64,000 bases of DNA from a virus, in IMG/VR virus record IMGVR_UViG_3300010885_054390, positions 16,255 through 80,254 of that record; one strand, written 5' to 3'. Position numbers and translations under genes: made by a program. Every line of letters begins with the position of its first letter. Positions within the stretch are counted from its first letter, which is position 1. A model generated the notes under the pieces. That model ran no database searches. It was not told where the DNA came from and saw nothing but the letters and a program-made list of their open reading frames with translations. This document shows positions 8,347-37,334 of this stretch, piece by piece.

Positions 8347-8376
8347 TGTCACCGCCGTTTAACCGACCTCAACCTA
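8347..8376 (+). promoter_or_regulatory. phage-specific bipartite promoter-like motif, copy 1
   Basis: TGTCACC-N15-TCAACCTA, upstream of the first early gene. Confidence 0.75.
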
Positions 8377-9025: not shown

Positions 9026-9055
9026 TGTCACCGAAAGTTTAAACGGCTCAACCTA
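9026..9055 (+). promoter_or_regulatory. bipartite promoter-like motif, copy 2
   Basis: TGTCACC-N15-TCAACCTA; ATG follows after a 6-nt gap. Confidence 0.75.
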
Positions 9056-9837: not shown

Positions 9838-9867
9838 TGTCACCGAAAGTTTAAACGACTCAACCTA
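9838..9867 (+). promoter_or_regulatory. bipartite promoter-like motif, copy 3
   Basis: TGTCACC-N15-TCAACCTA, intergenic. Confidence 0.75.
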
Positions 9868-10988: not shown

Positions 10989-11018
10989 GGTCACCCATCC
11001 ACAACCTACGTCAACCTA
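10989..11018 (+). promoter_or_regulatory. bipartite promoter-like motif, copy 4
   Basis: GGTCACC-N15-TCAACCTA, intergenic. Confidence 0.7.
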
Positions 11019-14440: not shown

Positions 14441-14470
14441 TGTCACCGAAACTAAACACACCTCAACCTA
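14441..14470 (+). promoter_or_regulatory. bipartite promoter-like motif, copy 5
   Basis: TGTCACC-N15-TCAACCTA, then AAGGA and ATG at 14481. Confidence 0.75.
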
Positions 14471-15716: not shown

Positions 15717-15717
15717 A

Positions 15718-15918: not shown

Positions 15919-16136
15919 GTAGCCTCATAAACAAGCGGATGTTCAAGACGTACTTGCTTTCGCTATCGAAGGTAAATGCGGACAAACGCAACGAGGCTCG
16001 AAGGGAGATGGGGATACTTGCCAACCTAAAGCCCCACTCCCGAGTCTCAAAGGAAACCTACGACAACGCAACCGCCCATCTAATCAACTGGATGAAGGCA
16101 CACATCATCGAAAAGAAAAAAGGAAAAACATTATGA
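15915..16136 (+). CDS. hypothetical protein
   Basis: ATGA overlaps. Confidence 0.55.
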   Translation: MSSLINKRMFKTYLLSLSKVNADKRNEARREMGILANLKPHSRVSKETYDNATAHLINWMKAHIIEKKKGKTL

Positions 16137-16699: not shown

Positions 16700-17124
16700 T
16701 GGCCAATCCCTACCACCACGCAGTAAGCTCCGCAAAGAAGTGGGGCGGGAAGCCCGAGGACTACCAGAAAATCCACGACTGGTTTGACGAATCAAAGATG
16801 ATGATGGCGGACTTCCGACATCGTGCCTTGCGTCACCACGCCGAGGGATGCTTCATGGCGGAACGAATCTTCGGGAACACCATCACCAACAGCGATGGAC
16901 GGAAGGTTCCGACTCGGTGGGTAGCCGAGCAACACGTCAAGGAAGACCTTGGGCGTATCCCTTCTATGCAAGACTGGTTTGTGCACATATCAGCCAAGCC
17001 TTGGATGGGGGCTACGCAGAAGCTGGACGCCGAAAAGATTGGCTCGGGCGTTCCGCATAGCTTAATCGGGCATACCTTTGTATGCCTACCACCAACAAAA
17101 AAAGGAAGAGGGAAAAGAAAATGA
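16699..17124 (+). CDS. DUF6915-like protein
   Basis: MANPYHHAVSSAKKWGG.PEDY..IHDWFDESK...RHRALRHH; usual neighbour of DUF6878. Confidence 0.8.
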   Translation: MANPYHHAVSSAKKWGGKPEDYQKIHDWFDESKMMMADFRHRALRHHAEGCFMAERIFGNTITNSDGRKVPTRWVAEQHVKEDLGRIPSMQDWFVHISAKPWMGATQKLDAEKIGSGVPHSLIGHTFVCLPPTKKGRGKRK

Positions 17125-17579
17125 ACATCAAAACATTCTTAAATAAACATCTATCGAAGAGACTCAAGGCCGAGTGCAACCGCTTGGGCGAACGTTACCG
17201 CAAGCTGGAAGCCAAGGACGAAGAAACGGGCTCTGACTCTTTCCACGGCTCCGATGAGCCAAGCGAAATCAGAGATCGGATTATCAATATGATGGCTCCT
17301 TCGGTTAAACGCTACGCCAAAAACCTGTTCAACAATCCAGTCGACAAGGACGAAGATAGCTTTGAGTTCTTTGACTCCTTGGGCAATGACCAGCTAGAAG
17401 TCTTCTGCATCAGGCGTGGCAAAAAAGGATGGGTGGCAAGCGTTTCAACTAACTACTGGGACGCCCCCGCAGATACCTGCGACGACTCCACCTGCGTGCC
17501 TACACCAGCGGAAGCCTTCGAGTGGGGCTTTGGCGACGCAATGGCTTACCACTTCATCAACGAGAAAGTAGGAAGATAA
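17121..17579 (+). CDS. hypothetical protein
   Basis: ATGA overlap. Confidence 0.6.
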   Translation: MNIKTFLNKHLSKRLKAECNRLGERYRKLEAKDEETGSDSFHGSDEPSEIRDRIINMMAPSVKRYAKNLFNNPVDKDEDSFEFFDSLGNDQLEVFCIRRGKKGWVASVSTNYWDAPADTCDDSTCVPTPAEAFEWGFGDAMAYHFINEKVGR

Positions 17580-17582
17580 TAT

Positions 17583-17840
17583 ATGAGCAAAACATTACTT
17601 GGCCGAGAGTTTAAAAACATCCCGACTGGCGACCTAGTCAAGCTAGTGCATGACAAGCATCAGGAGCTTAACAAGTACCCGAACAGCACCCGCATTCGAA
17701 TGGAGTTTAACTTCTCAACGCAAGAGCTGTGGAAGCGAGGCTGGAAACTCGAATACGTTACGACCCTTAAACTGCACCCGCCCCGCAAGGAACGCAGCGA
17801 AAGGTTTGTGACGTTTAAACAAAAGGAGGCCGTGGCATGA
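17583..17840 (+). CDS. hypothetical protein
   Basis: ORF in operon. Confidence 0.6.
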   Translation: MSKTLLGREFKNIPTGDLVKLVHDKHQELNKYPNSTRIRMEFNFSTQELWKRGWKLEYVTTLKLHPPRKERSERFVTFKQKEAVA

Positions 17841-18238
17841 ACAGCAAAGACTTCAACCTAAAGTTTCGAAAGGAAATCCAGACCCTCAACTTCGTATACC
17901 GAAGCACGTTCTTTGTTCACTGGTTCCTTCGCAGGTTCATCTTCGAAGGCGTCTTCGCGGGGAACGCTGACTTTAACGGCAACTCCGTAAGCGTAATCAG
18001 CGTGCCCGTTTTAAGGTTTTTCCTAGCCGACCTCGAGCGTCTTGTCATAAACTTGCACGACGAGATAGCTCGCATGAACAACTCACTCCCAAAGAAAATG
18101 CGTATACCTTTGAAGCTCCCCATCTACGAGAGCTACGCCAAGCTCAAGGCAAAGTCCGAGGCGAAGGCACGGCGGAACTCCAAAGTTTTAGTATCGTTTA
18201 ACCATGAGACCAGCGACGGAACAGGCATGAATGACTGA
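17837..18238 (+). CDS. hypothetical protein
   Basis: AGGAGG RBS; ATGA overlap. Confidence 0.6.
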   Translation: MNSKDFNLKFRKEIQTLNFVYRSTFFVHWFLRRFIFEGVFAGNADFNGNSVSVISVPVLRFFLADLERLVINLHDEIARMNNSLPKKMRIPLKLPIYESYAKLKAKSEAKARRNSKVLVSFNHETSDGTGMND

Positions 18239-18500
18239 CCTCGAACCTATCCCCTCGAGAAAGAGATGCCCCTCCTGCCAGCAGGAAACACTGGAAGGCG
18301 GAATAATAGACGACTACGTTGCCAACATCCGAGGCTTTGAGATCGTAATCCGAAACATAGAAAGAGACCGATGCTCTAACTGCGGGGAGCAGTGCTACGC
18401 TTGGAGCCAATGCCTCAAGATCGACCAAGCAATCAGAGACGCTAGGAAAGCGGGGGTACGGCACGACATCGGGCTGTACGACTTTCGTTTGGACGACTAA
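18231..18500 (+). CDS. YgiT/MqsA-type zinc-finger protein (no HTH)
   Basis: CPSC...IVIRNI....CSNCGE. Confidence 0.65.
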   Translation: MTDLEPIPSRKRCPSCQQETLEGGIIDDYVANIRGFEIVIRNIERDRCSNCGEQCYAWSQCLKIDQAIRDARKAGVRHDIGLYDFRLDD

Positions 18501-18544
18501 AAATAATCGTTGTCCTTTGCAGAATACGTGATAGTAATCGATTC

Positions 18545-18742
18545 ATGGCACAGCACAAACACTACGAAGTAAGGGTTCCTCGGAGCCACGTTGAAGTCCA
18601 CAAGGTTGTGGCGGAAGACGAAGCACACGCCAAGCGTTGTGTGCTGAACGGCGAGTCGCAAGACGTAAACGTTGAGCTTGCCCCCTACAAGTCCGCCGAC
18701 GAAACCAGCACCTCCGATTGGTCAGTATCCGAAGTATTGTGA
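18545..18742 (+). CDS. hypothetical protein
   Basis: 65-aa ORF with V.AEDE..A motif. Confidence 0.55.
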   Translation: MAQHKHYEVRVPRSHVEVHKVVAEDEAHAKRCVLNGESQDVNVELAPYKSADETSTSDWSVSEVL

Positions 18743-18980
18743 AGCAACTTCGTTTGGAGTTCTGCGAAAGCCTAAAGTGCTGGGTTGTTAAAAACGGCAA
18801 GTGGCGTTTTGGGCACAGAGTATTTAGAGATAAAGCCAAAGCCGAAAAGTTTCTCAAAGAAATTACCCTTAAAAAATAACTCCGCTGCTGCGTTTAGACG
18901 CTGTTTCTTTGGCATCCCGAAACAAGTTTTGCTCAAAAATCAACCGCAAGTCTTTGTGTATCAATTTAAAACCCTCGAAA

Positions 18981-19010
18981 TGTCACCGAAACACGGGCGA
19001 CCTCAACCTA
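18981..19010 (+). promoter_or_regulatory. bipartite promoter-like motif, copy 6
   Basis: TGTCACC-N15-TCAACCTA; ATG follows after a 6-nt gap. Confidence 0.75.
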
Positions 19011-19016
19011 TGTGGC

Positions 19017-19301
19017 ATGGCAACCGAAGGTAAACTAAAGTCCGCAAGGCTCGCCGAGACCACCCGCTCTATGGCCAAGCTAATTCAACTCGCCCTAGTT
19101 CGCCTTGGGGCTGACCCCAGTGCCCTTGTCGCAAGAAAGACTGACCTTCGAGGCTCGAAGGGCGGGCTCACCTTCGGCGAGCTCATGTACTGGTTAGCCT
19201 TTTCAATAAATGCCCTCGAGTTTAAATGCAAAAAGATTTTACCAGCAAACGAAGCCATACAAAGAATCCAGAGATGGAAGAAAGTGAAAACAATACTATG
19301 A
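19017..19301 (+). CDS. hypothetical basic protein
   Basis: ATG 19017 directly after motif copy 6. Confidence 0.55.
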   Translation: MATEGKLKSARLAETTRSMAKLIQLALVRLGADPSALVARKTDLRGSKGGLTFGELMYWLAFSINALEFKCKKILPANEAIQRIQRWKKVKTIL

Positions 19302-19615
19302 AAACAGCACACGCAACCGCAGAAGAACAACAAGCACAGAATATACTTGATATGCAAAAGGCAAGCCAGTTCCTCAACTGCCATCGGGGACGCTACATCA
19401 TCGGACGGGCTCTCTACGAGACGTACCAAAAGGTGAAGGACGAGGAGCCCTCGGACGCAGCGGACATGAAGTTTCTCGGGGAGACTTTGTTCCAAATCGG
19501 CTGGCTCTCCGCCTTTGTGATGAAGGATAGAAACGTCATCAAGCAACAAATGGATAGCATTCGCAAGCACCTCAAAACAGCGGGGAAACGGAAAACTAAA
19601 ATTGGAAAGGCATAA
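19298..19615 (+). CDS. hypothetical protein
   Basis: ATGA overlap. Confidence 0.6.
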   Translation: MKTAHATAEEQQAQNILDMQKASQFLNCHRGRYIIGRALYETYQKVKDEEPSDAADMKFLGETLFQIGWLSAFVMKDRNVIKQQMDSIRKHLKTAGKRKTKIGKA

Positions 19616-19619
19616 TTTT

Positions 19620-19865
19620 ATGGTACCTAAATTAGACTTGCTGAAAGAAGCCTGCGGACACTACCTTTCCTCTTGGACTGGAACCAAGACTGGCGAGGAG
19701 ATTCTTGAGGCCGTTACCAAGGGCAACTCGGAGGTAGAGGTTTGGCAACCCTTCGAAAACTGGTCGCCCGAAAACTTGGCCGAACAGATCGAAGTTACCG
19801 CAGAATCACTCACCAACCTCTACAAAGAAGCCTATGAACATGGAAAGGAGTCCGCAACCAAATGA
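19620..19865 (+). CDS. hypothetical protein
   Basis: ORF in operon. Confidence 0.55.
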   Translation: MVPKLDLLKEACGHYLSSWTGTKTGEEILEAVTKGNSEVEVWQPFENWSPENLAEQIEVTAESLTNLYKEAYEHGKESATK

Positions 19866-20131
19866 ATAAAGCGATCTTACTATTACTAGCCATCGGAGCC
19901 TCGGCGAAAGCAAACCCGCCGACCATTATCGGGCAGGGCGGAGAATACTTGGGCACACTATCCGCTAACCCCTTTGAGCCCTCGAGCACATCTAATCCCT
20001 ACGGATTATATGGGAGCGAATACAGCCCAGTCAGCTTGAGTGACCCCTTCGGAGCCTTCGGGAGCCCCTACAGCACCGAGTCCGCTACCAACGAATACTT
20101 GGTCAGCGAAACATTGGAGCTCGATAAATGA
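19862..20131 (+). CDS. secreted protein with (N/D)P(Y/F)G..GS.YS repeats
   Basis: Signal peptide ending ASAKA; NPYGLYGSEYS and DPFGAFGSPYS repeats. Confidence 0.65.
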   Translation: MNKAILLLLAIGASAKANPPTIIGQGGEYLGTLSANPFEPSSTSNPYGLYGSEYSPVSLSDPFGAFGSPYSTESATNEYLVSETLELDK

Positions 20132-20559
20132 AGGGTAAAAAAACGAAGCTCGAAGCAATTCTAGTTGACCCCGTTGAAAGAAGCATAAGCCTTGTTCCGC
20201 ATGGCGAGGACTTGGACGAGGTGTATGCAACCATAGGCTGCGATACCATCTGTGCCACACAAATGCCGTTTAACCACACAATGTTCTTGGACGACAACGG
20301 ACTTTGCCGACCCTTGAAAGAGATTAACCAACGTGGCCTCTTTTATATGGATGGAGCAAAACAGCCCTTCGCGGGCAAGGGACTGATTTTTCATTCCACC
20401 GCTGACGGAGGATTGGAATCGTGCTTCCTGCTTGTCGAGCAAGTGGAAGAGTTGATTCGTTGGAGGCCGAAGAGCCAACCAATGACAGAATCCGAGAAAC
20501 GGATTGCAACTCAAATACAAATCATCCCCTTTGGAGGTATTAGAAATCCTAATGAATAA
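20128..20559 (+). CDS. DUF3846-like protein
   Basis: AILVDP...IGCDTI...FLDDNGL...PFAGKGL pattern. Confidence 0.55.
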   Translation: MKGKKTKLEAILVDPVERSISLVPHGEDLDEVYATIGCDTICATQMPFNHTMFLDDNGLCRPLKEINQRGLFYMDGAKQPFAGKGLIFHSTADGGLESCFLLVEQVEELIRWRPKSQPMTESEKRIATQIQIIPFGGIRNPNE

Positions 20560-21001
20560 TAGACTACTCAAATTGAAGCGTAACTGGCTCAAAGCGGACA
20601 AAGTTGCCAAAACTCTTACCCGCAAGAAATGGGCTATCTACCGCAAGACAAGTTCTGCCTATAACAAAGTGACCTCAATAGAGAGCGCCTACCAAGACTT
20701 GTTTGTTAAAAGCCTAGTCAAAACCGAAGAGCCGACAACTTCCGATAGGCTACGTGAAATCGGGCGACTACTCACAGCTAATAAGCTGGCTTGGTCGGTT
20801 TTCCGCAAGACCGACAGCGAAAGAGGCTCTCATTATCGTATAACCATTCGAGGAAACAAAAACGTCTCGAGAATTACGAAAAGTTTTCTCGGGGTACAGC
20901 TATCCGCCTTTGCGGATGATGAAATCCAACGTTGCCTCGATGAGGAGAAGGCTACGCTCACTTACATTGTTGGAATCTATGAGGAGGTTGAAAATGAATA
21001 A
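20552..21001 (+). CDS. hypothetical protein
   Basis: ORF in operon. Confidence 0.6.
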   Translation: MNNRLLKLKRNWLKADKVAKTLTRKKWAIYRKTSSAYNKVTSIESAYQDLFVKSLVKTEEPTTSDRLREIGRLLTANKLAWSVFRKTDSERGSHYRITIRGNKNVSRITKSFLGVQLSAFADDEIQRCLDEEKATLTYIVGIYEEVENE

Positions 21002-21353
21002 TAGAGACGAATACGAAGATGATCTAAGGGAGCAGTGTAAGTGGGACGAGTTCAGGGCTAGACAACTAGACAGGGAGGACAGGGCGAATCAGACAGGCGA
21101 CTACGCCCCAAAGGACGCCGAAGGAAAAGGCTGGACTCCGTCTTACTCGGACATAGAGTGGACTAAACAGCTAATAAACAGCCTAAAAGAAGGGGGCACA
21201 TGGCTTGTCCCCGCCAACAAGTCTATTTGGACTTTTCGGCAAGAGGCCAAGGAAGCCCACCTAACATCAGGGGACGCCAATGAAGAAACAAACTCCCGCA
21301 TCAAAACAATCCTTCAAGAATACTTGGGGTACAACATCTTGGTATCTCAGTGA
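20994..21353 (+). CDS. hypothetical protein
   Basis: GAGGAGG RBS. Confidence 0.6.
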   Translation: MNNRDEYEDDLREQCKWDEFRARQLDREDRANQTGDYAPKDAEGKGWTPSYSDIEWTKQLINSLKEGGTWLVPANKSIWTFRQEAKEAHLTSGDANEETNSRIKTILQEYLGYNILVSQ

Positions 21354-21571
21354 GCAACTTAGGTTCCCCCGTACTTCTTCGGCACAAGGCCAAGGCTTGT
21401 CTCGAGGAGTCCGAGATGTCTTTGGCTCTGGAAAGCCTATCGGGTCTTCAACAGAGACACAAAATGCTGGAAGAAAACCTACAACTTACTCAGAAACTGC
21501 TTTTCAGCTACCTTTCGACCACTCGAAAGCTGGCCGAGGAGATAGCCGTCCTCCGAAAAAACAGACGATAG
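21350..21571 (+). CDS. coiled-coil hypothetical protein
   Basis: GTGA overlap; heptad pattern. Confidence 0.5.
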   Translation: MSNLGSPVLLRHKAKACLEESEMSLALESLSGLQQRHKMLEENLQLTQKLLFSYLSTTRKLAEEIAVLRKNRR

Positions 21572-21990
21572 CCTTCCTTGTTTCGCTTGTAGCCTTGCTC
21601 TTCTACCCTTCTTTTGCCACCACAAAGGAAAGCATTCCCGTAGAAGCAGTTAAACAGGTCAAAAGACCCCGGGCAGTAAAACATCGTTTAACCGTTTATT
21701 ACCCCGGGGAAGATCAATGGACTTCAAAGTGCCAAAGTTCTAGCGGGTATACCTTAAAAAATGGGGTCAGCATTGCCACCGATCAGAAGCTCTATGACTA
21801 TGGGGATAAGGTGTTTATCGAAGGCTTGGGCGAAAGGATTGTGCACGACACGGGCACAGCCGTACGCGAACGCAGAGCTAGTGGTGGCAGGTACCCGATC
21901 ATTGACGTTTTCTTTAAATCAAAGGCCGAGGCCATTCGCTTTTCGAATCAGGTAAAATACGCAAACGTCTACCTTGTTGACAATAAGTGA
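21550..21990 (+). CDS. 3D-domain (MltA-like) peptidoglycan lytic protein; start uncertain
   Basis: LTVYY...SIATD....YG.KVFIEGLGERIVHDTG.AV...IIDVFF; hydrophobic leader IAFLVSLVALLF; frame is open from 21280 but that part overlaps other genes. Confidence 0.7.
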   Translation, partial: PPKKQTIAFLVSLVALLFYPSFATTKESIPVEAVKQVKRPRAVKHRLTVYYPGEDQWTSKCQSSSGYTLKNGVSIATDQKLYDYGDKVFIEGLGERIVHDTGTAVRERRASGGRYPIIDVFFKSKAEAIRFSNQVKYANVYLVDNK

Positions 21991-25626: not shown

Positions 25627-25950
25627 ATGAAATGGTCGGTACTAAAACAAAAGCTGGCAAAACTGTCCCAAATTGCGTCCCAAAAGGCAAATCTAGAAAA
25701 TCACGAGGGCTCGGTAAAAGATCTAAATAAAGCAATCGAAGACGAGAATATCGTCGAAATACCCGAACAACTTTACGTATTCTTCCTTATGGAAAGGAAG
25801 TATCTTTTGGCTAACCTTGACGCCATGCAAAAAGTTATAGCCGCAGCCAAAAATTACAGCTCGGATGAGGTCGGGGAGTGTTGCTTTAAGGACTATATTC
25901 AGTCTTTAGATGAGCTTTACAAGTTTTATACCGAAGTCGGACTTCTCTAA
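25627..25950 (+). CDS. hypothetical protein
   Basis: 107-aa ORF convergent with the giant gene. Confidence 0.55.
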   Translation: MKWSVLKQKLAKLSQIASQKANLENHEGSVKDLNKAIEDENIVEIPEQLYVFFLMERKYLLANLDAMQKVIAAAKNYSSDEVGECCFKDYIQSLDELYKFYTEVGLL

Positions 25951-28900
25951 TTCTTCTGCCTGCTTAGCTCTTCATTGTAAGCCTTGCTTACGCCCATAAT
26001 AATCTCTTTTTGCCTGTCTTTTAGAGCTTTGATTTCGGCGGAGCGATCATCGCCACCCTCCTCGGATTGCTTCTGAATAGCTTTGAGTTGTTGCTTAACC
26101 TTCTGAAGCTGGCCGCTAGCGCTTCTAACAATCGGATAAACGTTAATTTCCGCAGCGTATTTTTCTGACGCTTTTTGCGCTCCTTCGGTATCGCCCCGTC
26201 CACCGAGTAGTTTCTGCTCTTCAATGGCAGTGTAGGCAGCCTGTCGAATTGCCGAAAATCTTTCGTAGTCAGCGTAGCTTGGTTGTTCGCCTACGAACCT
26301 GCGGAGGATCGGGATGTCGTTTAACCCAAGGCTCTCATTCGGATTGAGAATTTTCTCCGGTAGCGAAGCCACACGAAGGATGGTCGATCCAACTGCACCG
26401 GTCAGATAGCCCGCAAAGTAGTCCATATATTCTGGCGAGAACGACAAAGCTCCCTCGCGAACTTCATTGCCGCCGGAGATTTCGTTCATAAACTTTGTTA
26501 AGTGTTTAAACGCAGGAGTTACACTGTTGAAGTATTTCTCTGAAGCCGGCGTGGGTGAGGCGTCGCCGGGGAAGTCGGAGGGCGTGATTGGCCTGCCCGC
26601 CCAGTCTTGGTTTAAATAAATATCTGTCAAAGGCTGGAAAACTGTGGGCGTAAGTGATGATAGTAGGTTTCTAGCCCCGCCGATGGGGTTAAAGCTCTCC
26701 ATAAGAGTTTCGGCCATTCGAACTGCCGTATTCCCGTTTGTCTTCTTACCTAGCACCAAGTCGGACAGAATGTTTCCAGTGTGCCAAAAAGTGTTGTACC
26801 CGTAAGGCAACGGGAGGGATACGTACCTTCCCTTGGTTCCGGGGAGCATAATAATGATGTTTGTACGCTTTTTAAACTCGGGAACCTTTGACCAAAAGCT
26901 TTCGCCATCCTCATCATCTCCACCCGAAGCCTCGTTAAACATACTGGCCAACAACCCAGAGGTCACCGCCCCAACTGCTAACTTCCGAACCTTCGGAGAG
27001 GTTGCCACCGACTGCACCAGTCTGGCCGAGCCCTGTAGGGAGGCATTAAAGAACAAATAGATGCTGTTAAACACCGGCCCAGCCTCGCCCTTCTTCGTAA
27101 AGTTTACGGTAGCGTTTCTGGCAATCGCAGCGGCCTGCTGATCGGTGGCTCCCAATTCTCTTGCGTGATGAAAGACGGCTAAACGAGTGGCATTTTCTAC
27201 GCCCCCGTTCATTTTTTCAATCCAATTAGATGATGCCTTTAGAAACTTTTGAGCTGAGTTGGGGTCTTTCCCGTCCACAATCTTTTGAATGTCTTTTATC
27301 TGTGTTTCAATGTCCCCGGTAACCCATCCAATTAGCTTTCCGCCGGCCTTCAAGAAAGCTCTGTAGCTGTCGCCCCACTCATCTTGAGTAGAGTTGGGGT
27401 TAAATTCTTCCGCCAGCGAAGTCCGAAGCGGTTTTAGCGAAAGCACTGACTTCACTACCCTACCGGATAAATCTTTATACTGTTCCGCAGATAAGTTGAA
27501 GGCTGCGGTCTGTAAGTCTCGGATCGGATTAGTAAAGAAGAACTCCGGGCTAAGGCCAGTCCGGGTAATTGAAAGCAAACGGTTAAACGTTGCCAAGGCC
27601 CCCACTACTTTGCTCGACCAATTCTCGCTATTGATGCCCCCGTTTTTAAGATTTCGAACAAGATCGGGGTTTTTAATCCGGATAAACTTGGTCTCCCCGT
27701 TAATTTTTGTAGCAAAAATATCGTCTTGGTTCATCCAAGTTGGGTCAATAAAGTCTCTGGCGTATTGGAAGGCCTCTCCTGATTCTGGATCTTTTCTGGT
27801 TACTAGCCTCCGAACTGTCTGGGGCTTCGCAATCTCCCATAGATCGCTGTCGGGGTATGCCTGCACCAACTCATAAAGGGCATTTCCGAGAACGTTCTTT
27901 TCCGCTCTGACGATACCCGCTGCGGCACTATTCATTGCATAGGCTAGAATATTTTCTGCCCTGCTCAGACGACCTAAGGTCGGCTTAACTTCTTCACCAC
28001 GGATATTAAATCCTTTTCCAGTGGCTTGCCCGCTAGTAGCGATTTCTTCCGCCGTGGCTCCGGGGATTCCCTTTAGCGGAACATAATCTTTATACCTGTC
28101 GGTAAGAGCCTCGAATAAGGGTCGGGAGATCAATCCTTCGTCTAAACGTTGTCGGAGGGCCCCGTCAATCATTTGCCGGATCATCTGGCGGGACTCCTCA
28201 AGCTGAGTGGCTCTATCGTCAGCCTTGTACTTGGCGATCAAATCGTCTGCCTCTGCGTCGGTCATTCCCGAGCCTCTTTCGTGAAGTTGTTCTATGTATT
28301 CTTTGTTCTTCTTGGCCTTGTTGTATTTGGCGAGCTCTTCTGGTGTTGCGTCCTCTCCGGGGAAATAGGGCTCTGGGGGCATGGGATTGATAAGTCGGAT
28401 ACGTGCGTTCCGCTCTTTCGCGTGCAGGGCGTACATAAACTCCTCAATCTCGGCTGTCGAGATTCCCGAGCTCCTAAGCTTTTGAAGAATGGGCTCGACT
28501 ATGTTTTCGTTGAAGTCAGTTAGGCGTGCTCCGACCTTTCCGTGGTAGAGCTCCTCAAGTTGATAGGCGTTTAAACTGTCTGGCAGCGGCTCGCCAATTT
28601 GTTTCTCAATGGATTCTTGGATCTTCTTTAAGTCAATAAACCTATCTTGCCAAAATCTTCTCAGGCCGAGGATTTTGTCTGCATTCGTCACATACTTCCC
28701 GAGAAGCTCTCTAGCAAATCTCGGCAAGAAAGGAACTTTGCTTTCGTCAAAGAACACTTTGTTTTCCGGTTGGTACTTGAATCCACCAATAGGGGCCGCG
28801 CCTAAAATGTCGGGCGAAGAAGTGAAGTCCGAGTTCAGTCCATTTGCGAGCTTTAGCTGGTCTGCATTGAAAACGACAAACCTTGAGTTCTGTGCTTTAT

Positions 28901-31900
28901 CATCCGTATTGGCTTCTCCTAGTTCAATGGAGTCAAAGCCAAAACCTTTGAGCACCCCTTGGAAAAATGTATTCGCGAAGGCTGTGGAGTCTGCCAAGTG
29001 CGGGTAGCTTTGCTCCTCAATCGCATCGGCTGTAGTTTTAATTCTTTCGGAAACTTCAGATAGCTTCATTCCAGTTTGATCTGCAATAGCCTTCGAAAGC
29101 ATTGGGACAATCGCCTCTTTAATGAATACCGAGCCATCAAAGACGTGCTCTGGAACCGAAGCCATTCGCAACGGATTCTCCGCCCTTACAAAAACAGGCG
29201 TTTTCATTCTTGGCTTGCCGTCTTTTTGATAGGCCTGCGCTACGGAGAATTGAACGTCATCTGCCCTGACCTGATCTCGGCTATATGTCAACGCCCCGCC
29301 CGGGGTGCTTAGAGTATTAGGGGCTCTAATATCGGAGGTTGCTACGTAGTATTGAACTGCGGGGCTTCCGTCTGGTCGAGTCACCTTGCTGTTCCCGAAC
29401 CAGTCTTTAAATTCTTTGAGCTTTGTAACTAAGTTTAAAACTTCGGAATCGGGAGTTGCCTTCAAAAAGTAAGGTAGGCGACTCGCAATAAAATCTCTTG
29501 ACGCTGGGGAAATCGACGGGAAGACCTCATGGGTCAAGACAGCCGTAAGAGCTGGCACCGAATCTCCTTTAAAAATTGTACGTAGGCGGTCGAAGGTGCC
29601 CCTATCTAACCCCTCTTCTTGGAAGTCAGCGACAACTTTCTCCATTGTATTGTTGAAGGCCTCGGCTGAATTCCTGAACTTCTCAATTTGTTTAAACAGA
29701 TCGTAGTTCCTGCGGCGGAAGTCGGGGTTGTCCAATAAGCCAACACGATAGTTTCCGTTTTCGTCTATTTGGTCGTCAGCCTCTAAATATGATTCTTCGA
29801 TTCGGCGTACGAAAGAATCAATAAAAGCATTCTTACGGATAGCTTTTTTATAATCAAAGGCCTTCCCGTTAAGGAAAACCGGTTTCTTTGCGTAGCCAAC
29901 AACCTTTGCCAACTGCATCTGCTGTTCGTCTGTCGGCTCTTTCGGCCCAGTAACCTTCAGGCCAGCGTCAGAGACCTCAACCTGAAGCCAGTTTTTCTTA
30001 AAGTTAGAAAGGTCTTTCTTGGAGAACAGCTCTGTTTCGGAAATTGAATCGAAGTTTCCGCCCTCAATTAAAGCTCCCTTTGCGGTCATCAGACCGCTCA
30101 CCGGGTTCTCTGGGTTAAACGTTGTGGCTCCAATTTCAGTAAGTTCTATTTCGCTCGGCTCAATTGGAGTAATCCTCGCAGCATGAAGCCTGTCTCCGTA
30201 AACAATCTCTTTTGCGTCTTCAAAGGTAGCTCCGTTTGCCGTCTGCAAGAACCTCACTAAATCCTCCGACGGAACATACTTCGCAACAAAAGATGCTGCG
30301 TCTTTCAGGATTTCAGGGGAACCATTAAAGCGATAGGCTTCCGCCAGCTTTTTGTAGGCATCATCAAACAAGACTCTTTCGGCTGTTCCGTTTTTGGGGA
30401 CTTGCGGTAGCCTGCCGCTCGCAAATTTATTCGCGTCTAAACGATTTGCGGCCATGTAGCCTTCGTCCGGACTTAGCTTTGCTGTCTCTACATAGGTAAA
30501 CTTTCCATTGCTCTCCATCAAAGCCAAATTACCGCCAACTCCGGGCATCATAACAAATGCCTCGCCGGCCTTGGTACGCATTAACGGAACCTTGAACATC
30601 GAAGCAGTCGCGGCGAGAACTCGATCTTTGTTCTCTGAAGAGGCGTTAATTGCCCTTAGCAAATTGGTCTGAAAGCTTTCTTTCGTAGAAGCGCTAAAGC
30701 TCCCCAATAGGTCGTTCCAAAAATCAAGGACTGCCGTATTATTTTCAAAGACGCTAAAATCAGATATTACATTTTGAAGAGTCCTATTTTTTTCGTTTAC
30801 GTCAGTCCAATAGTTTTCACTCTCCATCTTTCTAGCAAAGGACATCTTCTGGAAACCCTTCATGCGTCGCAATGGGAAATTAAATCCCGCTACCGACCTC
30901 AAAAGCTGTTGGGATGGAGATGCGGCCCCAATGGTTGTATCTTGCTTGGGAGCTTCGACTTCCCAAGGAGCAGGTTCGTTTCTTCGGATCTCCGCTAGTC
31001 TCTTCTGTTCGGCTAAATACTTTTCATCGTCTTTCTTTACACCGGAGTAATTCAATTTCTTTTCCGGGTACATCATCTCCGGAAGAAGCTCAATTTCTTG
31101 TGCAGTCATACCCGGAAGTCGCTTGCCAGTAATCGGGTCGTACTCAGGTGCGCTACGCTTTGCGTAGGTTTTCGCCATAATAACAAGCTCAACTTCGGGT
31201 ATTCTTTGCCACTTCGTAAATTCTTCCGGAAGAAGAGCTACTTTTTGCTTTGCGTACGGGGCCGTTCCTTTTTCCGATTTAATATCTGAGTTGAGCAAGG
31301 AGTATCTGTGCGGGCCAAAGTTAAACCAACTATTCTGCCCCCTTGTTTCCGTTGTCAAAGCCCTCTGTGCATTGTCGGAAAACATCTGAGAATGCTTGAT
31401 CCAAGCATTTTCTTCCCCTCGGGGCCCGAAGCCGTAACCCTCTGCGGCGTGACCAAATAGGTCGTGAATTGCACGCAGTTTCTCGTTTAAACTTACTCCG
31501 TTTTCGTCTCGCTTTCCGAGGTAGGGGTGAGATTCTCCGCCAGTAAAATAGAACAACCGATTGTTGGAGCGAACATCCTTCCGCATTTCGGAAGAAGTTT
31601 CGTAGGGCTGACCTTCTTTTGTCCAAGGCTCAAAACGCATCCCCATCTTTTCTGTGGCAAACTTCCATTGCTCTTCAATCTCAGAAGCTAAAGATTCGTA
31701 GGCTTTTTTAACTTCTTCGGAAGGATCAAAGTCTGGAAGGTTTTCGTAGGCTTCCGCAATCTTAGTTGCCTCCTCTTTTCTGACTGGAACCCAAATGTGA
31801 TCCACCATAATCGGGCCACGGCGGGATGCCTCTTTGGCCTGTCTAAGTAGTCTGGCGCTGGATTGCGCCTTGCTCCAACCCCTTACGCGCCGATTGGCTT

Positions 31901-34900
31901 GCGGCGAGGCCGATTCTCCAACTGATCCTCCTCCGATAGCGGCCCGACTGACTCCGAGATGATAAGCCGCGAGCCCTTTGGTGAAATCGTCGGGGATGTC
32001 TTGTAGCCGATTCCCAAGTTGCTCAAGAAGTCCGGAGTAATCTTGTTGCTCGATGACTTGGATTTGTCCGAGCTCACTACGGGCTTCTTTGATGAGACCT
32101 TTGTAGGCTTCGAAGAACTTAGTGATTCTGTCTTGAGTTTGTTCATTTTGTTGTACTCCTAAGTAGAGGGTATTAGAGGCGGTGTCAATTCCGAACCCGT
32201 CTTCGAAGCCAAGCTTTCTAGCGTTGGCCACAAACTTGTTTAAACCGGATCGGTCTTTAAAGACAATCTCGTGCTCTACATCTGTGGGGTTAGTTACGTT
32301 AGTGTCGAAAATATAGACCGCCCTTTGAACTTCGGGGGTAGAAAACGGATTGGAGGCAAGCAAGGCCGCAAGGGGCTTGGGATCGCCCTCCGGAAGAGTG
32401 AATACAACTGACGGCTCCAATTGTAGCCCAACGTCTGGATTGTCCCATCCACCAACAGTATTTGTTGGGTCAGTTATGTTGTAGCCGAAGATCGAAGCAA
32501 GTTTCATTAGGTTCTTGCCACGCTTGGCAAACCTAGTTTCCGCCAAATTGTCTGCATTCTTCAGGCTCTTAAAGTTCCTATCGCGCATTGCAGCGACGGC
32601 GACCTTGGCGGCCCCAAAGATGTCCATCTCTCCGACGACATTCGAGATCTGGCCGGGAGTAAGCGGTTTAAACAGCGTTTTGCTTTTTGCGGGCCACCTA
32701 TCGTGAACTACGCCAAGCTCTAAGGAAATTGCTTTTTGAATCAATAGATCGATTTGGTCTCTACCGGGCTTGCCCTCCAAGAGAATATTGTTTCCGTCAT
32801 TCGTCATGCGGAGCCATCCACGGCTAAACATTTCATTGTTCACATTCTTGCCGAGGCTGTATCCGTATTTCTGCTGAAGGTCTTTATAAATTTCAGGCTC
32901 GTTCTCTTGGAGCCACATAATCATTTCGCCGGCGTGACTATCCATAGAATCCATTCCCTCGTAGCGAATTGCGGAGCTTTCTACTGGAATAATCTCGCCC
33001 TTTGGCCCCATCCAATAAGGATCGAAGTCGGGAAGTTTATCAATGGCTTTTGTGTTTGGCTCAGGGGTGATCTTAGCTGCGCCGAGAACGTCTCCCAAGC
33101 GATAGCGCTTCAGGCCAAGTTTCTTTAAAATTCCGGGGCTGGCATTTGCAAAACGAAGTGTTCCGATTTCTTTTATCATCGAAGGCCGAAGCGTTTCCGA
33201 CATCCACTTTTCAACTCGTTCCCTAGCCCTTTGCCTTCTTTTCTTTTCCCCCGAAGAAAGATTCCTAGTTCTGGTAGCATCCTTTTCGGACTCAAAGTAC
33301 CCTGTGATCTCAATCTTCTGTGAGTAGGGATTAAACTTTGCCTGTAGGTTTCCACGAAAGACGTTGTCGAAGATTTCTTTTTCGGCTCCCGTAAAAGGAG
33401 CTTCCGCAATAATCTTGTTTAGCTTTTGCCCTACGCTTTCTTTGCTTTCGCGACTAATTTTATCAAGGATCTCCGGCTCAACAGAAAGCACCGCTTGTCC
33501 ATTTTCATCGAAGGCTGCGTCCGTATACTCCGGAACTTCTTGCGATTCGATTGTATCTGGTACCTGCTCCCCCAGCCTATCGCCCCAGTTTGCCGTTACA
33601 GCCGTTTTAGCCTGCCCTGTTTCAGGATTTATGCTCGCTACCTTTTGGCTTTCATCCATTGAGTCAGTAAACGTCGGGGCATTGGGGTCTTCATCTGGGA
33701 GTACGGTGGCTTGGTCTTCGACGGAAGCGTCTATTTGAGGGGTTACGTCTTCCTCCATTTGGGGGTCGCTCTGCTCGTCAACTTGCTGTTGAATCGGCGT
33801 TTCGGTTTTATCTGACGGGCCTTTTTTCAGCTTTTGCTCTAATTCAGTGCTGATTAAACGCGAAAGTTTGTTCTTGATGGAGCGGAACACGGCTGTTTTT
33901 TGTTCCTCCTTACTGCCATTCTCTGGGAAATTTGTCTCTCGGGATGCGGTCATCAAATAGATAAGAGCTTCGTTTGCAACTTCGGAAGGGGTCTTAATGC
34001 CCATTCTCTCTAGCTCAAACTTGAACACCGGATTATTTCGAATGTATCCCGCAAAATACTTAACGGTTTCATTCACCATCTCCGGGTCATTAATGAGCGA
34101 GTCCAAGATCTTGTCGGCGTTCGGGTTTACATCCTCACCCATCTTGCTGTTTACGGTTACATCAATAGAATTGAAGTATTGCCCCTGTGCCGCTTCCTGA
34201 CCTCTCGGCGTCTCTCTTGTAACGGGAGCCGCGCCTAATGTCTCTTCATCCTCTGGAATAGACAAGGTTGGCTCGTCGGGCATTTGAGCTTTTTGTTCTT
34301 GAGGCTTTGATTTACCAACAAAAGCCTCGAAGGATGGAATAGGTACTTCGTCACCTTCTTTTGCCTTCACAATACTGTCACGAATCATCTGCCGGTACTC
34401 TGTTAGCTTCTGCGAGGCCTGCACCGGATCGCCAAGTATCTTTTTTGCAACTAAATTGCGGATTGTAGTCTCTCGTTTTTGAAGAGTTGCTGAGTCTTTC
34501 TTGCGGTCTTTCCCATCCCGACGCCTACCAGAATCATAGGCATCCGCGCTATTTTGATCTGGGAATACCAACCTAACGCTCCCGTACTTTCCGCGAGCCT
34601 GAAAGCGTTTAAGCGAAGAAGGGTTTACCTTTGCCGGAGTTTCTTTTTTTGCTGGCTTTGGAACTGGTGTCGCTTTTGCCTTCGGAGCTGGCGCCTTAAT
34701 CTTTTCGGCTTCTATTTCTTTCCGAATGTTGTCCCTAACAACGTTTAAAGCATCGAGCTGACGGTATCTGTCTTGCTCCAATTCCACTTCGTCAGGAACT
34801 GGGGACGCTTCAATCTCGGCAATCTTGTTTGAGGTTTCGTCAAACTTTGCTTGAAGCGTTGCAAGCCTTGAGGGCTGTTGCGGCTCTAATGTAGCAGGGA

Positions 34901-37334
34901 CAGCTTCTGAACCTTGCGTAGAAGCGTCTGGTTGAAGGGTCTCGAGAGGAGTGGCAGTTTCTTGAGGTTGGCCCTCTCCTTTTGTTTCGACGGGCGCGAC
35001 TGCGGCTGTAGCTGTTGTTGCTGCTTTTTTTGAGCTTTTCTGGAAAATTTTCTCAGCTTTTTGTTTTTCATCTAGCAAACTATTAATAGCCTTTAAATGC
35101 TCCTTTACAACAGGCGAGTCTTTTGAGAGCCCGCGAACCGCACGTTGCCAGTAATCCTTCGCTGAAAGAAGGGACTCCTCCAAGATTCCGGCCTTCTGTT
35201 TGTCCATGTCTTTTCTGTTTTGCCAAGTATCTTCTGTGGTGACTCCAATCTTTTTCCTTTGAATCAACTGGCGAACAAACTCGCTGTAAAGATTGTTGCC
35301 GCTAAGATTCTCGTCACCGTATTGAGCGCGGGTGTCGCGGATTTCTTTTTCTGTCATCTGCGAGGCACCCTTTTCACCAAACTCTTTTCTCCACTGGCTA
35401 AAGGAAGTTTTATTTGGGTCTACCTCTCCGCGATTGATGGCCTGCTGATAAAGGTTTGCCCTTGCCTTTGTCATGTCTGTGTCGTGAATCAACTCTTCTG
35501 CCATTGCAGATATTAGATACGTTTGTCGCCTTTTTTCGGCTAGCTGTGCGTTACCACCCTTTTCTCCCTTAACTTTTTGGTCAATGCCTGAAAGCTCTTG
35601 CTTGAGAAGATCTAGGTTTATTTGAACTGTATTTTCTTCATTGGTATCAATAGAGAAAGCCCTGTTATTGTCAGAAAACTTAATTGTGATCGGCTTGTCT
35701 GGGTTTGCTCCGAGCACATTGTAAGCTTCCTTCATTGCCATCCCGGTAAGCCTTTTTGCGCGGTTAAACGCGGACTCTTTTTGGGTGTTGTCTAGGCCGC
35801 TATGTAGGCTGTCAAAAGACTCCCTATCAAAAGTAAATGGGTTGTTGGCTTGTTCCTGCTCATCCCCCATTAGCTTAGTCATCAAGTTACTTTGATTCCG
35901 GAAATCTTGCATGGCCAAAGCCATTGATGTCTTGGGCGCGAAGTTGCGAAGCCTTTCAGCGACTAAGTCCGCCCTAGAAGATCCTCTCGCTGCTGCGATA
36001 ACCGGTGCTCCACCTCCGACCTCCAAAGCGCCCTCCATAGCGATTGCATTTGGGTCTGTAATGTCTCCGTAGGCCAACTGCTGGCTAAGCGCCTCTCCAC
36101 CCATTCCGCCCGTAACCTCAGTTAAAAATAAACCGCCAGTTTCAGCTACCTTCCGAAGCCTGCTTACCCCTTTTAGGCCAGCCTTTACAGCGGTGCTCTC
36201 GAAGGCGGAGGATAGCCCAAAGGTGGCAAGAGCCGTTAGCCCGTCAACAACGCCCACCGGAACGCCCTTTTCATTTGCGGCCTGCTTAACCTTGCCCATC
36301 AGCTCTTCGTTCTGCATTGCTGCGACAAGTTGCTCGGGGTCGTTTACGTTAATCCCGTCAAAGCCGGGTGTGGGATCTTTTAAAGGCTCCTTGCCATTCT
36401 TTACCCGCTCAATGTTCTTAGCCCGAATATCCTTTTGAATCTCGCCACTCAAAAGCCCCATTAACGTCCCCGAATATTCCAGCTCGTAGGAGCTCTTTCC
36501 TGTAGCGGTGGCTACGCCCGTCCTGAAGCCCTGCTTTGCGCCTTGAATGGCCCCCGGAATCGCGCCCACACCGTCAAAGGCGACTCCCACCCCAGCACCA
36601 ATTCCCGCCCCAGCAAGGGTCTGCCCCACAATGGCGTCTGCATTAGTGGCAATCTTTGGGGTAAGCATCGAGAGCTGCTCGACCATAGCCCCAGCAAAAT
36701 TGGGTAGAACCGACTTCGACAAAAAGATGTCCCCAACTGTTTCCTTTGGCGGGGCCAGTTTTGAGATCTCTTCGTTTAAACGCTTAACATCTGAGGCGGC
36801 TTTTTCCATGCCGCTTTGATCTTTTTCAGCCGCAGCTTTTTCCAAGGCTTCGGTGGCCTCGGACAATTGGTACTGCTTAAATCCGTAGGTTCCGCGCTCA
36901 AAAAGTTCTGGGCCATTAAAAACGTATTTCTCCAAGACGTTTCTGTCGGGCCTGTCCAACTGGAAGGCCTTCTCAATCTGTTTAAACTGATCGTTAAGTT
37001 GTTTTCTGCCTGTTGCCGTTTGGAGGGCTCCCGTTGGCTCAACGGCTTGAAGAGTTTTTCCGCGCCAAGTGTCAAAGAGTTCTTTTTTCTTTTCGAAGTC
37101 AGCCTTATCAAAGTTTGAGGCTACCTGATAATCGTTCCAGCTTTGAGGCCCGTTTTGTTGAGCCGGCTCTGTCGCAACCTGTTCTGCTGGGACCTCTTGC
37201 GAGGCTTCTTCCGCTGTAGCTAGCGATGAAAGTTTTTGATTTATCTCCGGTGTAAGCTTGTCGAGCTCTTCTTGAGTTATGTCTTCGGGGAGGTCAAGGT
37301 TCACTTGCCCCCTACCGGGGATGTCTACTAACAT
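25947..37334 (-). CDS. giant polyvalent internal virion/ejection protein (3795 aa): peptidase-like, sigma-like, HD-GH, degenerate ART and LPD38-like modules
   Basis: Last gene of the virion module; C-terminal LPD38-like motif (FWSKVPEF.K..N......SLPLPYGY), FKDWFGNSKV ART-PolyVal-like start, AEELIH, sigma-like segment aa ~1037-1416. Confidence 0.85.
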   Translation of the reverse strand: MLVDIPGRGQVNLDLPEDITQEELDKLTPEINQKLSSLATAEEASQEVPAEQVATEPAQQNGPQSWNDYQVASNFDKADFEKKKELFDTWRGKTLQAVEPTGALQTATGRKQLNDQFKQIEKAFQLDRPDRNVLEKYVFNGPELFERGTYGFKQYQLSEATEALEKAAAEKDQSGMEKAASDVKRLNEEISKLAPPKETVGDIFLSKSVLPNFAGAMVEQLSMLTPKIATNADAIVGQTLAGAGIGAGVGVAFDGVGAIPGAIQGAKQGFRTGVATATGKSSYELEYSGTLMGLLSGEIQKDIRAKNIERVKNGKEPLKDPTPGFDGINVNDPEQLVAAMQNEELMGKVKQAANEKGVPVGVVDGLTALATFGLSSAFESTAVKAGLKGVSRLRKVAETGGLFLTEVTGGMGGEALSQQLAYGDITDPNAIAMEGALEVGGGAPVIAAARGSSRADLVAERLRNFAPKTSMALAMQDFRNQSNLMTKLMGDEQEQANNPFTFDRESFDSLHSGLDNTQKESAFNRAKRLTGMAMKEAYNVLGANPDKPITIKFSDNNRAFSIDTNEENTVQINLDLLKQELSGIDQKVKGEKGGNAQLAEKRRQTYLISAMAEELIHDTDMTKARANLYQQAINRGEVDPNKTSFSQWRKEFGEKGASQMTEKEIRDTRAQYGDENLSGNNLYSEFVRQLIQRKKIGVTTEDTWQNRKDMDKQKAGILEESLLSAKDYWQRAVRGLSKDSPVVKEHLKAINSLLDEKQKAEKIFQKSSKKAATTATAAVAPVETKGEGQPQETATPLETLQPDASTQGSEAVPATLEPQQPSRLATLQAKFDETSNKIAEIEASPVPDEVELEQDRYRQLDALNVVRDNIRKEIEAEKIKAPAPKAKATPVPKPAKKETPAKVNPSSLKRFQARGKYGSVRLVFPDQNSADAYDSGRRRDGKDRKKDSATLQKRETTIRNLVAKKILGDPVQASQKLTEYRQMIRDSIVKAKEGDEVPIPSFEAFVGKSKPQEQKAQMPDEPTLSIPEDEETLGAAPVTRETPRGQEAAQGQYFNSIDVTVNSKMGEDVNPNADKILDSLINDPEMVNETVKYFAGYIRNNPVFKFELERMGIKTPSEVANEALIYLMTASRETNFPENGSKEEQKTAVFRSIKNKLSRLISTELEQKLKKGPSDKTETPIQQQVDEQSDPQMEEDVTPQIDASVEDQATVLPDEDPNAPTFTDSMDESQKVASINPETGQAKTAVTANWGDRLGEQVPDTIESQEVPEYTDAAFDENGQAVLSVEPEILDKISRESKESVGQKLNKIIAEAPFTGAEKEIFDNVFRGNLQAKFNPYSQKIEITGYFESEKDATRTRNLSSGEKKRRQRARERVEKWMSETLRPSMIKEIGTLRFANASPGILKKLGLKRYRLGDVLGAAKITPEPNTKAIDKLPDFDPYWMGPKGEIIPVESSAIRYEGMDSMDSHAGEMIMWLQENEPEIYKDLQQKYGYSLGKNVNNEMFSRGWLRMTNDGNNILLEGKPGRDQIDLLIQKAISLELGVVHDRWPAKSKTLFKPLTPGQISNVVGEMDIFGAAKVAVAAMRDRNFKSLKNADNLAETRFAKRGKNLMKLASIFGYNITDPTNTVGGWDNPDVGLQLEPSVVFTLPEGDPKPLAALLASNPFSTPEVQRAVYIFDTNVTNPTDVEHEIVFKDRSGLNKFVANARKLGFEDGFGIDTASNTLYLGVQQNEQTQDRITKFFEAYKGLIKEARSELGQIQVIEQQDYSGLLEQLGNRLQDIPDDFTKGLAAYHLGVSRAAIGGGSVGESASPQANRRVRGWSKAQSSARLLRQAKEASRRGPIMVDHIWVPVRKEEATKIAEAYENLPDFDPSEEVKKAYESLASEIEEQWKFATEKMGMRFEPWTKEGQPYETSSEMRKDVRSNNRLFYFTGGESHPYLGKRDENGVSLNEKLRAIHDLFGHAAEGYGFGPRGEENAWIKHSQMFSDNAQRALTTETRGQNSWFNFGPHRYSLLNSDIKSEKGTAPYAKQKVALLPEEFTKWQRIPEVELVIMAKTYAKRSAPEYDPITGKRLPGMTAQEIELLPEMMYPEKKLNYSGVKKDDEKYLAEQKRLAEIRRNEPAPWEVEAPKQDTTIGAASPSQQLLRSVAGFNFPLRRMKGFQKMSFARKMESENYWTDVNEKNRTLQNVISDFSVFENNTAVLDFWNDLLGSFSASTKESFQTNLLRAINASSENKDRVLAATASMFKVPLMRTKAGEAFVMMPGVGGNLALMESNGKFTYVETAKLSPDEGYMAANRLDANKFASGRLPQVPKNGTAERVLFDDAYKKLAEAYRFNGSPEILKDAASFVAKYVPSEDLVRFLQTANGATFEDAKEIVYGDRLHAARITPIEPSEIELTEIGATTFNPENPVSGLMTAKGALIEGGNFDSISETELFSKKDLSNFKKNWLQVEVSDAGLKVTGPKEPTDEQQMQLAKVVGYAKKPVFLNGKAFDYKKAIRKNAFIDSFVRRIEESYLEADDQIDENGNYRVGLLDNPDFRRRNYDLFKQIEKFRNSAEAFNNTMEKVVADFQEEGLDRGTFDRLRTIFKGDSVPALTAVLTHEVFPSISPASRDFIASRLPYFLKATPDSEVLNLVTKLKEFKDWFGNSKVTRPDGSPAVQYYVATSDIRAPNTLSTPGGALTYSRDQVRADDVQFSVAQAYQKDGKPRMKTPVFVRAENPLRMASVPEHVFDGSVFIKEAIVPMLSKAIADQTGMKLSEVSERIKTTADAIEEQSYPHLADSTAFANTFFQGVLKGFGFDSIELGEANTDDKAQNSRFVVFNADQLKLANGLNSDFTSSPDILGAAPIGGFKYQPENKVFFDESKVPFLPRFARELLGKYVTNADKILGLRRFWQDRFIDLKKIQESIEKQIGEPLPDSLNAYQLEELYHGKVGARLTDFNENIVEPILQKLRSSGISTAEIEEFMYALHAKERNARIRLINPMPPEPYFPGEDATPEELAKYNKAKKNKEYIEQLHERGSGMTDAEADDLIAKYKADDRATQLEESRQMIRQMIDGALRQRLDEGLISRPLFEALTDRYKDYVPLKGIPGATAEEIATSGQATGKGFNIRGEEVKPTLGRLSRAENILAYAMNSAAAGIVRAEKNVLGNALYELVQAYPDSDLWEIAKPQTVRRLVTRKDPESGEAFQYARDFIDPTWMNQDDIFATKINGETKFIRIKNPDLVRNLKNGGINSENWSSKVVGALATFNRLLSITRTGLSPEFFFTNPIRDLQTAAFNLSAEQYKDLSGRVVKSVLSLKPLRTSLAEEFNPNSTQDEWGDSYRAFLKAGGKLIGWVTGDIETQIKDIQKIVDGKDPNSAQKFLKASSNWIEKMNGGVENATRLAVFHHARELGATDQQAAAIARNATVNFTKKGEAGPVFNSIYLFFNASLQGSARLVQSVATSPKVRKLAVGAVTSGLLASMFNEASGGDDEDGESFWSKVPEFKKRTNIIIMLPGTKGRYVSLPLPYGYNTFWHTGNILSDLVLGKKTNGNTAVRMAETLMESFNPIGGARNLLSSLTPTVFQPLTDIYLNQDWAGRPITPSDFPGDASPTPASEKYFNSVTPAFKHLTKFMNEISGGNEVREGALSFSPEYMDYFAGYLTGAVGSTILRVASLPEKILNPNESLGLNDIPILRRFVGEQPSYADYERFSAIRQAAYTAIEEQKLLGGRGDTEGAQKASEKYAAEINVYPIVRSASGQLQKVKQQLKAIQKQSEEGGDDRSAEIKALKDRQKEIIMGVSKAYNEELSRQKN

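Follow-up and report, generated by a model that had tools for sequence, protein, structure and literature searches.

A candidate sigma domain 2-like bundle within a giant, probably ejected phage protein

The giant protein and its cassette

The DNA analysed here is a 64,000-nucleotide window of a viral genome (IMG/VR record IMGVR_UViG_3300010885_054390), bases 16255-80254 of an 80,254-bp record rated complete, and all positions given below are those of the window. Its minus strand carries a gene block that starts at TerL, includes virion and tail proteins, and ends with a giant open reading frame (ORF) of 3795 amino acids (aa). The subject of this work is a cassette within that protein, composed of an N-terminal helical bundle with a possible likeness to domain 2 of sigma70-family factors (sigma2), a long acidic linker and a basic C-terminal domain (Table 1). 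An earlier note, made from the sequence alone, had read this segment as an entire sigma factor built into the virion protein, with regions 2, 3.2 and 4 in the correct order. Its coordinates, 33084-34226 on the minus strand, do correspond to aa 1037-1417, and every string that it quoted is present.

The 3795-aa protein belongs to the polyvalent proteins of phages, which are giant, multi-domain and delivered with the DNA, and for which "jump-starting transcription" is a described theme (Iyer et al. 2017, PMC5512222). Besides its size and multi-domain layout, it contains a large-polyvalent-protein-associated domain, LPD38, which is phage-specific (PMC5512222) and was found by Pfam search of the whole protein at aa 3481-3676 with an E value of 3e-36, over the cut-off. 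The same search gave weak matches to ART-PolyVal (E 9e-4), which is also recorded for two of the homologues, and to DUF6861. PHROGs 14770, 616 and 10691, built from giant phage proteins, match aa 2893-3793, and the C-terminal ~900 aa align, at 32% identity over 99% of this length, with giant proteins found in short-tailed Stx-converting, Vibrio, Ralstonia and Burkholderia phages. This C-terminal module (25950-28655, minus strand) is common to the giant proteins of 344 phage records and perhaps forms the structural core that the class has conserved; a scan of genome contigs with it gave no match. The proteins of those phages share the module, but their middle parts lack the cassette (tblastn, 50,697 phage records). 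The protein contains no cysteine, against ~34 expected from the other long ORFs of the phage (0.9% Cys), and the nine full-length homologues (3795-4628 aa) are likewise free of it, which we read as a sign that the protein has to travel through the tail. Taken together, LPD38, the absence of cysteine and the position in the operon indicate that the giant protein is probably packaged in the virion and ejected with the DNA.

The cassette is immediately preceded by E-T-L-G-A-A; its last residues are D-V-L, after which comes G-A-A. The two boundaries are kept in nine of nine homologues (L-G-A-[A/S/G]), so that the L-G-A-A limits proposed for the segment hold. The homologues (P0002-P0010) are 47-99% identical to the cassette across the whole region. 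In wider searches, phmmer against 1.84 billion representative proteins returned its own clade only, a single metagenome match (L119) is 92% identical, tblastn against the 50,697 phage records gave no match, megablast found nothing beyond the clade, and scans of viral contigs with the cassette, the promoter-like motif described below and two of the homologues (P0008 and P0005) gave no match. Further junctions of the form [L/I/F]-[G/H]-A-A are found at aa 1574, 2136, 2384 and 2845 (the whole set spanning 28791-34238, minus strand), at positions conserved across the homologues, and the cassettes between junctions vary in length from one homologue to another (P0005 reaches 4628 aa). The tripeptide GAA occurs five times in the giant protein, against 2.3 expected, each time in a junction context.

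Table 1. Positions in the window of the giant protein gene, the parts of the cassette and the promoter-like motif copies
Feature	Position	Strand	Basis or remark
Giant ORF, 3795 aa, phage-type polyvalent protein (probable ejection protein)	25947..37334	-	ORF, LPD38 match, no Cys
Cassette, aa 1037-1417	33084..34226	-	found in all homologues
Upstream junction L-G-A-A, aa 1033-1036	34227..34238	-	kept as L-G-A-[A/S] in all homologues
Downstream junction L-G-A-A, aa 1417-1420	33075..33086	-	kept as L-G-A-[A/G] in all homologues
Candidate sigma domain 2-like helical bundle, aa ~1069-1171 (segment residues 33-135)	33822..34130	-	AF2, VIA, ESM, sigma2 profile
Variable, strongly acidic, disordered linker, aa ~1172-1239	33618..33821	-	pLDDT <40
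Conserved acidic block, aa ~1240-1282, with W-G-D-x-L-G-x-x-V-P-D	33489..33617	-	identity to homologues
Basic C-terminal domain, aa ~1283-1417	33084..33488	-	net charge +9; AF2
Motif copy 1	8348..8376	+	
Motif copy 2	9027..9055	+	ATG at 9062, 7 nt past last base; leaderless mRNA predicted
Motif copy 3	9839..9867	+	upstream of AAA_5 ATPase gene
Motif copy 4	10990..11018	+	upstream of DUF7192 gene
Motif copy 5	14442..14470	+	
Motif copy 6	18982..19010	+	ATG at 19017, 7 nt past last base; leaderless mRNA predicted

Domains of the cassette

In the AlphaFold2 (AF2) model, the N-terminal part of the cassette forms a five-helix bundle at segment residues 31-127 (predicted local distance difference test (pLDDT) 70-87), followed by a disordered acidic stretch and a C-terminal part of lower confidence. 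By our reading of the model, the order and lengths of the helices match regions 2.1-2.4 of sigma factors. The bundle was searched with VIA, an all-against-all structural alignment to 48,161 PDB representatives, in which sigma2 domains took ranks 1, 4, 5, 8, 18, 22, 26, 30 and 36 and made up 9-10 of 22 N-domain rows. The best match, 5uxx_C (Z 6.3, root mean squared deviation 3.3 Å, 81 residues aligned), covers chain residues 2-83, and it is accompanied by 5zx2_F (Z 5.9), the N-terminal domain of SigE (8b3z_A, Z 5.1), pro-sigmaK, sigma28 and SigI. VIA also aligns residues 185-266 of AR9 gp226, chain A of the AR9 non-virion RNA polymerase (RNAP), with a Z of 5.6; residues 184-264 of this protein are a sigma2-like domain according to its depositors, with ~10% identity to sigmaE (PMC9209446).

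Two other methods name the same domain. For residues 28-135, the three nearest named clusters in ESM feature space are all viral Sigma70_r2 (0.90, 0.90 and 0.89), and the features of the whole cassette also lean weakly toward Sigma70_r2. A sigma2-only profile, built from 36 sigma factors, was compared by hhalign with 132 windows along the 4043-column alignment of the giant protein: the three highest scores are those of N-domain windows (17.2, 17.0 and 16.7; next 14.4), with V-A-[N/Q]-E-A-L placed on region 2.2 and F-R-x-I-K-N-K-L on region 2.3/2.4. It is the sole hhalign comparison that survives the sliding-window control. Structure, ESM features and profile, which are different in kind, thus converge on one family and one sub-domain, and a sigma2-like fold for the N-terminal domain is plausible but weak; on the strength of these models we consider it probable, with a good deal of doubt.

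Several results weigh against this assignment. The AF2 model was built on an alignment of only ten sequences. No match to Sigma70_r2 (PF04542) or related models was found in the cassette at E values up to 10 (Pfam, NCBIfam), the phmmer search of 1.84 billion proteins linked it to no sigma factor, and phmmer and profile searches of the PDB returned nothing. The giant proteins score below 0 at the cassette with custom sigma hidden Markov models (HMMs), run with filters off and based on 36-50 sigma factors from four gammaproteobacteria, E. coli among them. All VIA Z scores of the domain lie under the level that the tool deems safe for helical bundles, and the Legionella protein NttA, a four-helix protein that is not a sigma factor, reaches a Z of 6.2. 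An ESM score of 0.90 is attained by 4-10% of shuffled proteins. A comparison with a whole extracytoplasmic function (ECF) sigma profile had placed the N-terminal part on regions 2.2-2.4 and the C-terminal part on region 4.2, with P ~0.02 each; it was dropped as noise, because four other windows of the giant protein score higher in the sliding-window control. The fold check proposed in the earlier note was divided: AF2 and VIA gave the bundle, whereas Foldseek found nothing at E <= 0.001 for the whole-cassette model in either the PDB or BFVD, and among Foldseek's 22 rows re-scored by VIA only NttA stands out.

These points feed a reading in which the domain is a generic helical bundle unrelated to sigma, and the cassette a structural or spacer part, for instance within a conduit across the envelope, tethered by an acidic disordered stretch. 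All the sequence searches are negative, the Z scores do not exceed 6.3 and NttA equals them, the whole-ECF hhalign scores stay within the range of other windows and the alignment behind the model is shallow, all of which such a bundle would explain. It would explain less readily why three kinds of method agree on both family and sub-domain, why in each sigma match, the divergent gp226 included, the aligned range is sigma2 itself, and why the secondary-structure order and lengths agree, in our reading, with regions 2.1-2.4. We regard a bundle unrelated to sigma as a serious minority possibility. A complex prediction of the N-terminal domain with residues 230-340 of the E. coli beta-prime subunit gave a score of 0.16 (mark 0.32), which speaks neither for nor against an interaction.

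The linker that follows the bundle is strongly acidic (net charge of aa 1171-1285, -22) and of two kinds. Its first ~70 residues are only 22-33% identical to those of distant homologues, and the 43-residue conserved acidic block is 60-67% identical, against a protein mean of 54-55%, and is the best-conserved part of the cassette. This block had been likened to region 3.2; a sigma finger there has neither structural nor profile support, and the resemblance is one of appearance alone.

The C-terminal 135 residues, folded alone with AF2 (pLDDT 62.6), are predicted to form two helices, a beta hairpin, a short helix and a long Arg/Lys-rich helix. VIA returned generic long-helix matches (best Z 5.1), the sole sigma row being 7vpd_F, which we take to be HrdB, at rank 50 with a Z of 4.1; Foldseek found nothing for this model in the PDB at E <= 0.001. 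Among the windows compared with a sigma4-only profile, the domain came 8th, behind two unrelated places in the giant protein. The region 4 proposed for this part therefore lacks support, as VIA, Foldseek and the sigma4 profile recover neither a sigma4-like nor a helix-turn-helix (HTH) fold, and this too counts against a sigma factor. What gains support in the initial reading is its region 2-like part, by fold, ESM features and the sigma2 profile, and not its counterparts of regions 3.2 and 4. In AR9 gp226, a finger-like linker comes after the sigma2-like domain and leads to a C-terminal domain of a new type, whose DNA contacts lie around -35 (PMC9209446). By analogy with this precedent, the C-terminal domain of the cassette may be a new DNA-binding domain in the place of sigma4.

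The best HTH/sigma4-like profile match in the giant protein lies at aa ~2744-2790 (28965-29105, minus strand; hhalign probability 65%, P 6e-5), within the weak ART-PolyVal match. A second one is found near aa 3050-3130.

Candidate promoters and possible roles of the cassette

The bipartite motif GTCACC-N15-TCAACCTA, which the earlier note had pointed out, does occur six times in the window, on the plus strand only and between 8348 and 19010, with none expected in shuffled sequence, and all six copies directly precede an ORF. In our reading, the geometry of the motif is that of sigma70-family promoters: with its last A taken as -7, GTCACC spans positions -35 to -30 and AACCTA positions -12 to -7, with a 17-bp spacer between them. 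The same numbering places +1 at the A of the ATG in copies 2 and 6 (9062 and 19017), whose mRNAs would thus be leaderless. Scans for E. coli-type sigma70 promoters around 6900-9100 and in the divergent region between TerL and the helicase were uninformative.

The block that bears the motif stands apart from the rest of the window. A stretch of 14,434 bp (7235-21669) lacks any CCGG, and no GCGC is found in bins 8001-20000, the window totals being 192 and 115, respectively. The CCGG-free stretch coincides with the motif-bearing plus-strand block, whose coding strand is strongly A-rich (AT skew 0.15-0.35), and a terminator-like hairpin followed by a T-run precedes the motifs near 7240-7270. The absence of these sites and the hairpin fit a block that enters the cell first and is read first.

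The sigma70-type geometry leads one to expect a specificity factor of the sigma family. The claim that the phage has no separate sigma or RNAP gene could be extended beyond the window: the whole 80,254-bp genome yields neither a match to Sigma70_r2 nor one to T7-type RNAP (PF00940), the latter in a search run without a positive control, and none of its 651 stop-to-stop ORFs of at least 50 aa matches the custom sigma HMMs. A polymerase of the N4-like or crAss-like kind inside the giant protein was also considered and rejected, since Pfam gives no RNA_pol match there at E values up to 1 and the DxDGD motif is found nowhere in the genome. The cassette is consequently the only sigma-like candidate in this phage, and the combination of sigma70-geometry promoters with the lack of a sigma or RNAP gene makes the idea of an injected sigma coherent.

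In the mechanism that we propose, the cassette would belong to a polyvalent virion protein that lacks cysteine and is probably ejected into the host together with the DNA, and it would consist, in this order, of a very divergent sigma70-family domain 2-like bundle, a long acidic linker, partly disordered and partly conserved, and a basic C-terminal domain. On arrival of the protein, the bundle would dock on the beta-prime clamp helices of the host RNAP, so that the phage would have a hold on host transcription from the outset, ahead of any expression of its own genes. Through this hold, the polymerase might be steered to the six GTCACC-N15-TCAACCTA promoters, or it might only be captured or blocked. 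On the models at hand we lean slightly toward an injected polyvalent protein with a sigma2-like cassette that docks on the host RNAP.

The use of that hold is where the alternatives part. The promoters may be read by another factor, such as a host alternative sigma, the host primary sigma with an unusual consensus or a small phage factor, and the sigma2-like domain, if real, might strip sigma from the host RNAP and so bring about host shut-off. E. coli sigmaE promoters have a TCAAA -10 box, which the TCAAC of the downstream box resembles; moreover, many small plus-strand ORFs lack an assignment. Two points speak against another reader: no sigma-like protein is recognised among the 651 ORFs, and the motif is confined to one block of the phage genome. 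We consider another reader a substantial possibility, somewhat short of an even chance.

At the other extreme, the cassette would be cut out at the L-G-A-A motifs as a complete injected sigma, its N-terminal domain reading TCAACCTA as a -10-like element and its C-terminal domain reading GTCACC as a -35-like one, and the early block would be transcribed without phage protein synthesis. All the evidence for sigma2 likeness counts in its favour, as do the exact -35/17 bp/-10 geometry of the motif, with leaderless starts in two copies, the lack of any other sigma or RNAP in the 80-kb genome, the coincidence of the motif block with a 14.4-kb zone in which CCGG and GCGC are missing, as for first-entering DNA, and the conservation of both junction motifs in all homologues. 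AR9 gp226, in turn, keeps sigma2 while a new DNA-binding domain replaces sigma4 (PMC9209446). Against it stand a C-terminal domain with no recognisable HTH or sigma4 fold, only 8th against the sigma4 profile, and a cleavage that is unsupported: no protease could be assigned, the sole HExxH lying in a SprT-like protein of the motif-preceded plus-strand block. Nor does any observation link the domain to the motif. A complete sigma excised in this way is improbable to our mind, and we judge equally unlikely the broader proposal that a sigma-like module, freed at the junctions or left uncut, docks on the host core RNAP and directs the six early promoters before phage protein synthesis. The observation itself is real, and the sigma2 likeness of this candidate cargo of a polyvalent protein is plausible but weak; the step from there to a complete injected sigma is coherent but doubtful.

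Phages are known to start transcription by letting the host holoenzyme act on ordinary promoters, by injecting a polymerase (N4, crAss-like and phiKZ-like phages) or by injecting enzymes that modify the host polymerase (T4 Alt). The giant protein differs from the N4 virion RNA polymerase, as the T7-type RNAP domain (PF00940) is not found in it (Pfam, E up to 1). The late sigma of T4, gp55, consists of little more than a sigma2-like domain, which recognises a -10-type box of 8 bp, another protein taking the role of sigma4; in contrast to the cassette as proposed here, it is a separate protein that is synthesised after infection and is not packaged. The closest structural likeness is with domain 2 of ECF sigmas (5uxx_C, 5zx2_F and 8b3z_A), which agree with the bundle in predicted helix order and lengths, provide its best structural matches (Z 5-6.3), and carry Q-E-[A/G]-x-[I/L] in region 2.2 at the place of [N/Q]-E-A-L in the cassette. 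In contrast to these free factors of 170-250 aa, the cassette lies inside a 3795-aa protein, with no sigma4 recovered, and has neither detectable sequence homology to them nor the tryptophan of region 2.3.

The AR9 protein gp226, a promoter-specificity subunit of a phage RNAP, is an instance of a sigma2-like domain with vanishing sequence similarity (PMC9209446), and its residues 184-264 align to the model of the N-terminal domain. It is, however, a separate subunit of the non-virion RNAP that AR9 itself encodes, whereas here no phage RNAP was found and the domain belongs to a probable virion protein. The catalogue of polyvalent proteins names the N4-type RNAP, ADP-ribosyltransferases and others as cargo, and the word "sigma" is absent from it (PMC5512222). 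In purified particles of Salmonella phage Arash, the sigma factor Gp010 was identified by 24 unique peptides at 100% coverage (PMC10585845); this is a hint in print of a sigma inside a virion, albeit a canonical free sigma and not a domain of an ejection protein. No ejection protein with an injected or virion sigma turned up in full-text literature searches, the Arash factor being the nearest case.

If true, the injection of a sigma-like module would count as another start strategy, the third beside injected single-subunit and multisubunit polymerases. It would explain how the first genes are read in a phage whose promoters are unusual and which lacks a sigma gene, and would add a transcription-initiation domain to the cargo catalogue of polyvalent proteins. 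Its present value is that of a clearly testable hypothesis, because the signal behind it, at the level of the fold, is weak.

Further features of the early block

Eleven larger plus-strand ORFs lie near the motifs and encode, among others, a SprT-like protein, an AAA_5 ATPase, DUF7192 and DUF6878 proteins and a methyltransferase. The SprT-like zinc metalloprotease (9237-9824, plus strand), located in the motif-preceded block, has the only HExxH among the ORFs of the genome longer than 150 aa. The genes of the AAA_5 ATPase and the DUF7192 protein adjoin (9897-11940, plus strand), each with its own motif copy.

The palindrome GTTTAAAC has 32 sites in the window and none in its first 8 kb; the copies at 9037 and 9849 sit in the spacers of motifs 2 and 3. 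An 18-bp hairpin is found at 8200-8238. Short hairpins (4-6 bp, with loops of 3-4 nt) lie just upstream of motif copies 1-4, their 3' arm ending in the first G of GTCACC, and copies 5 and 6 share AAAACCC[C/T]CGAAAT in the place of these hairpins.

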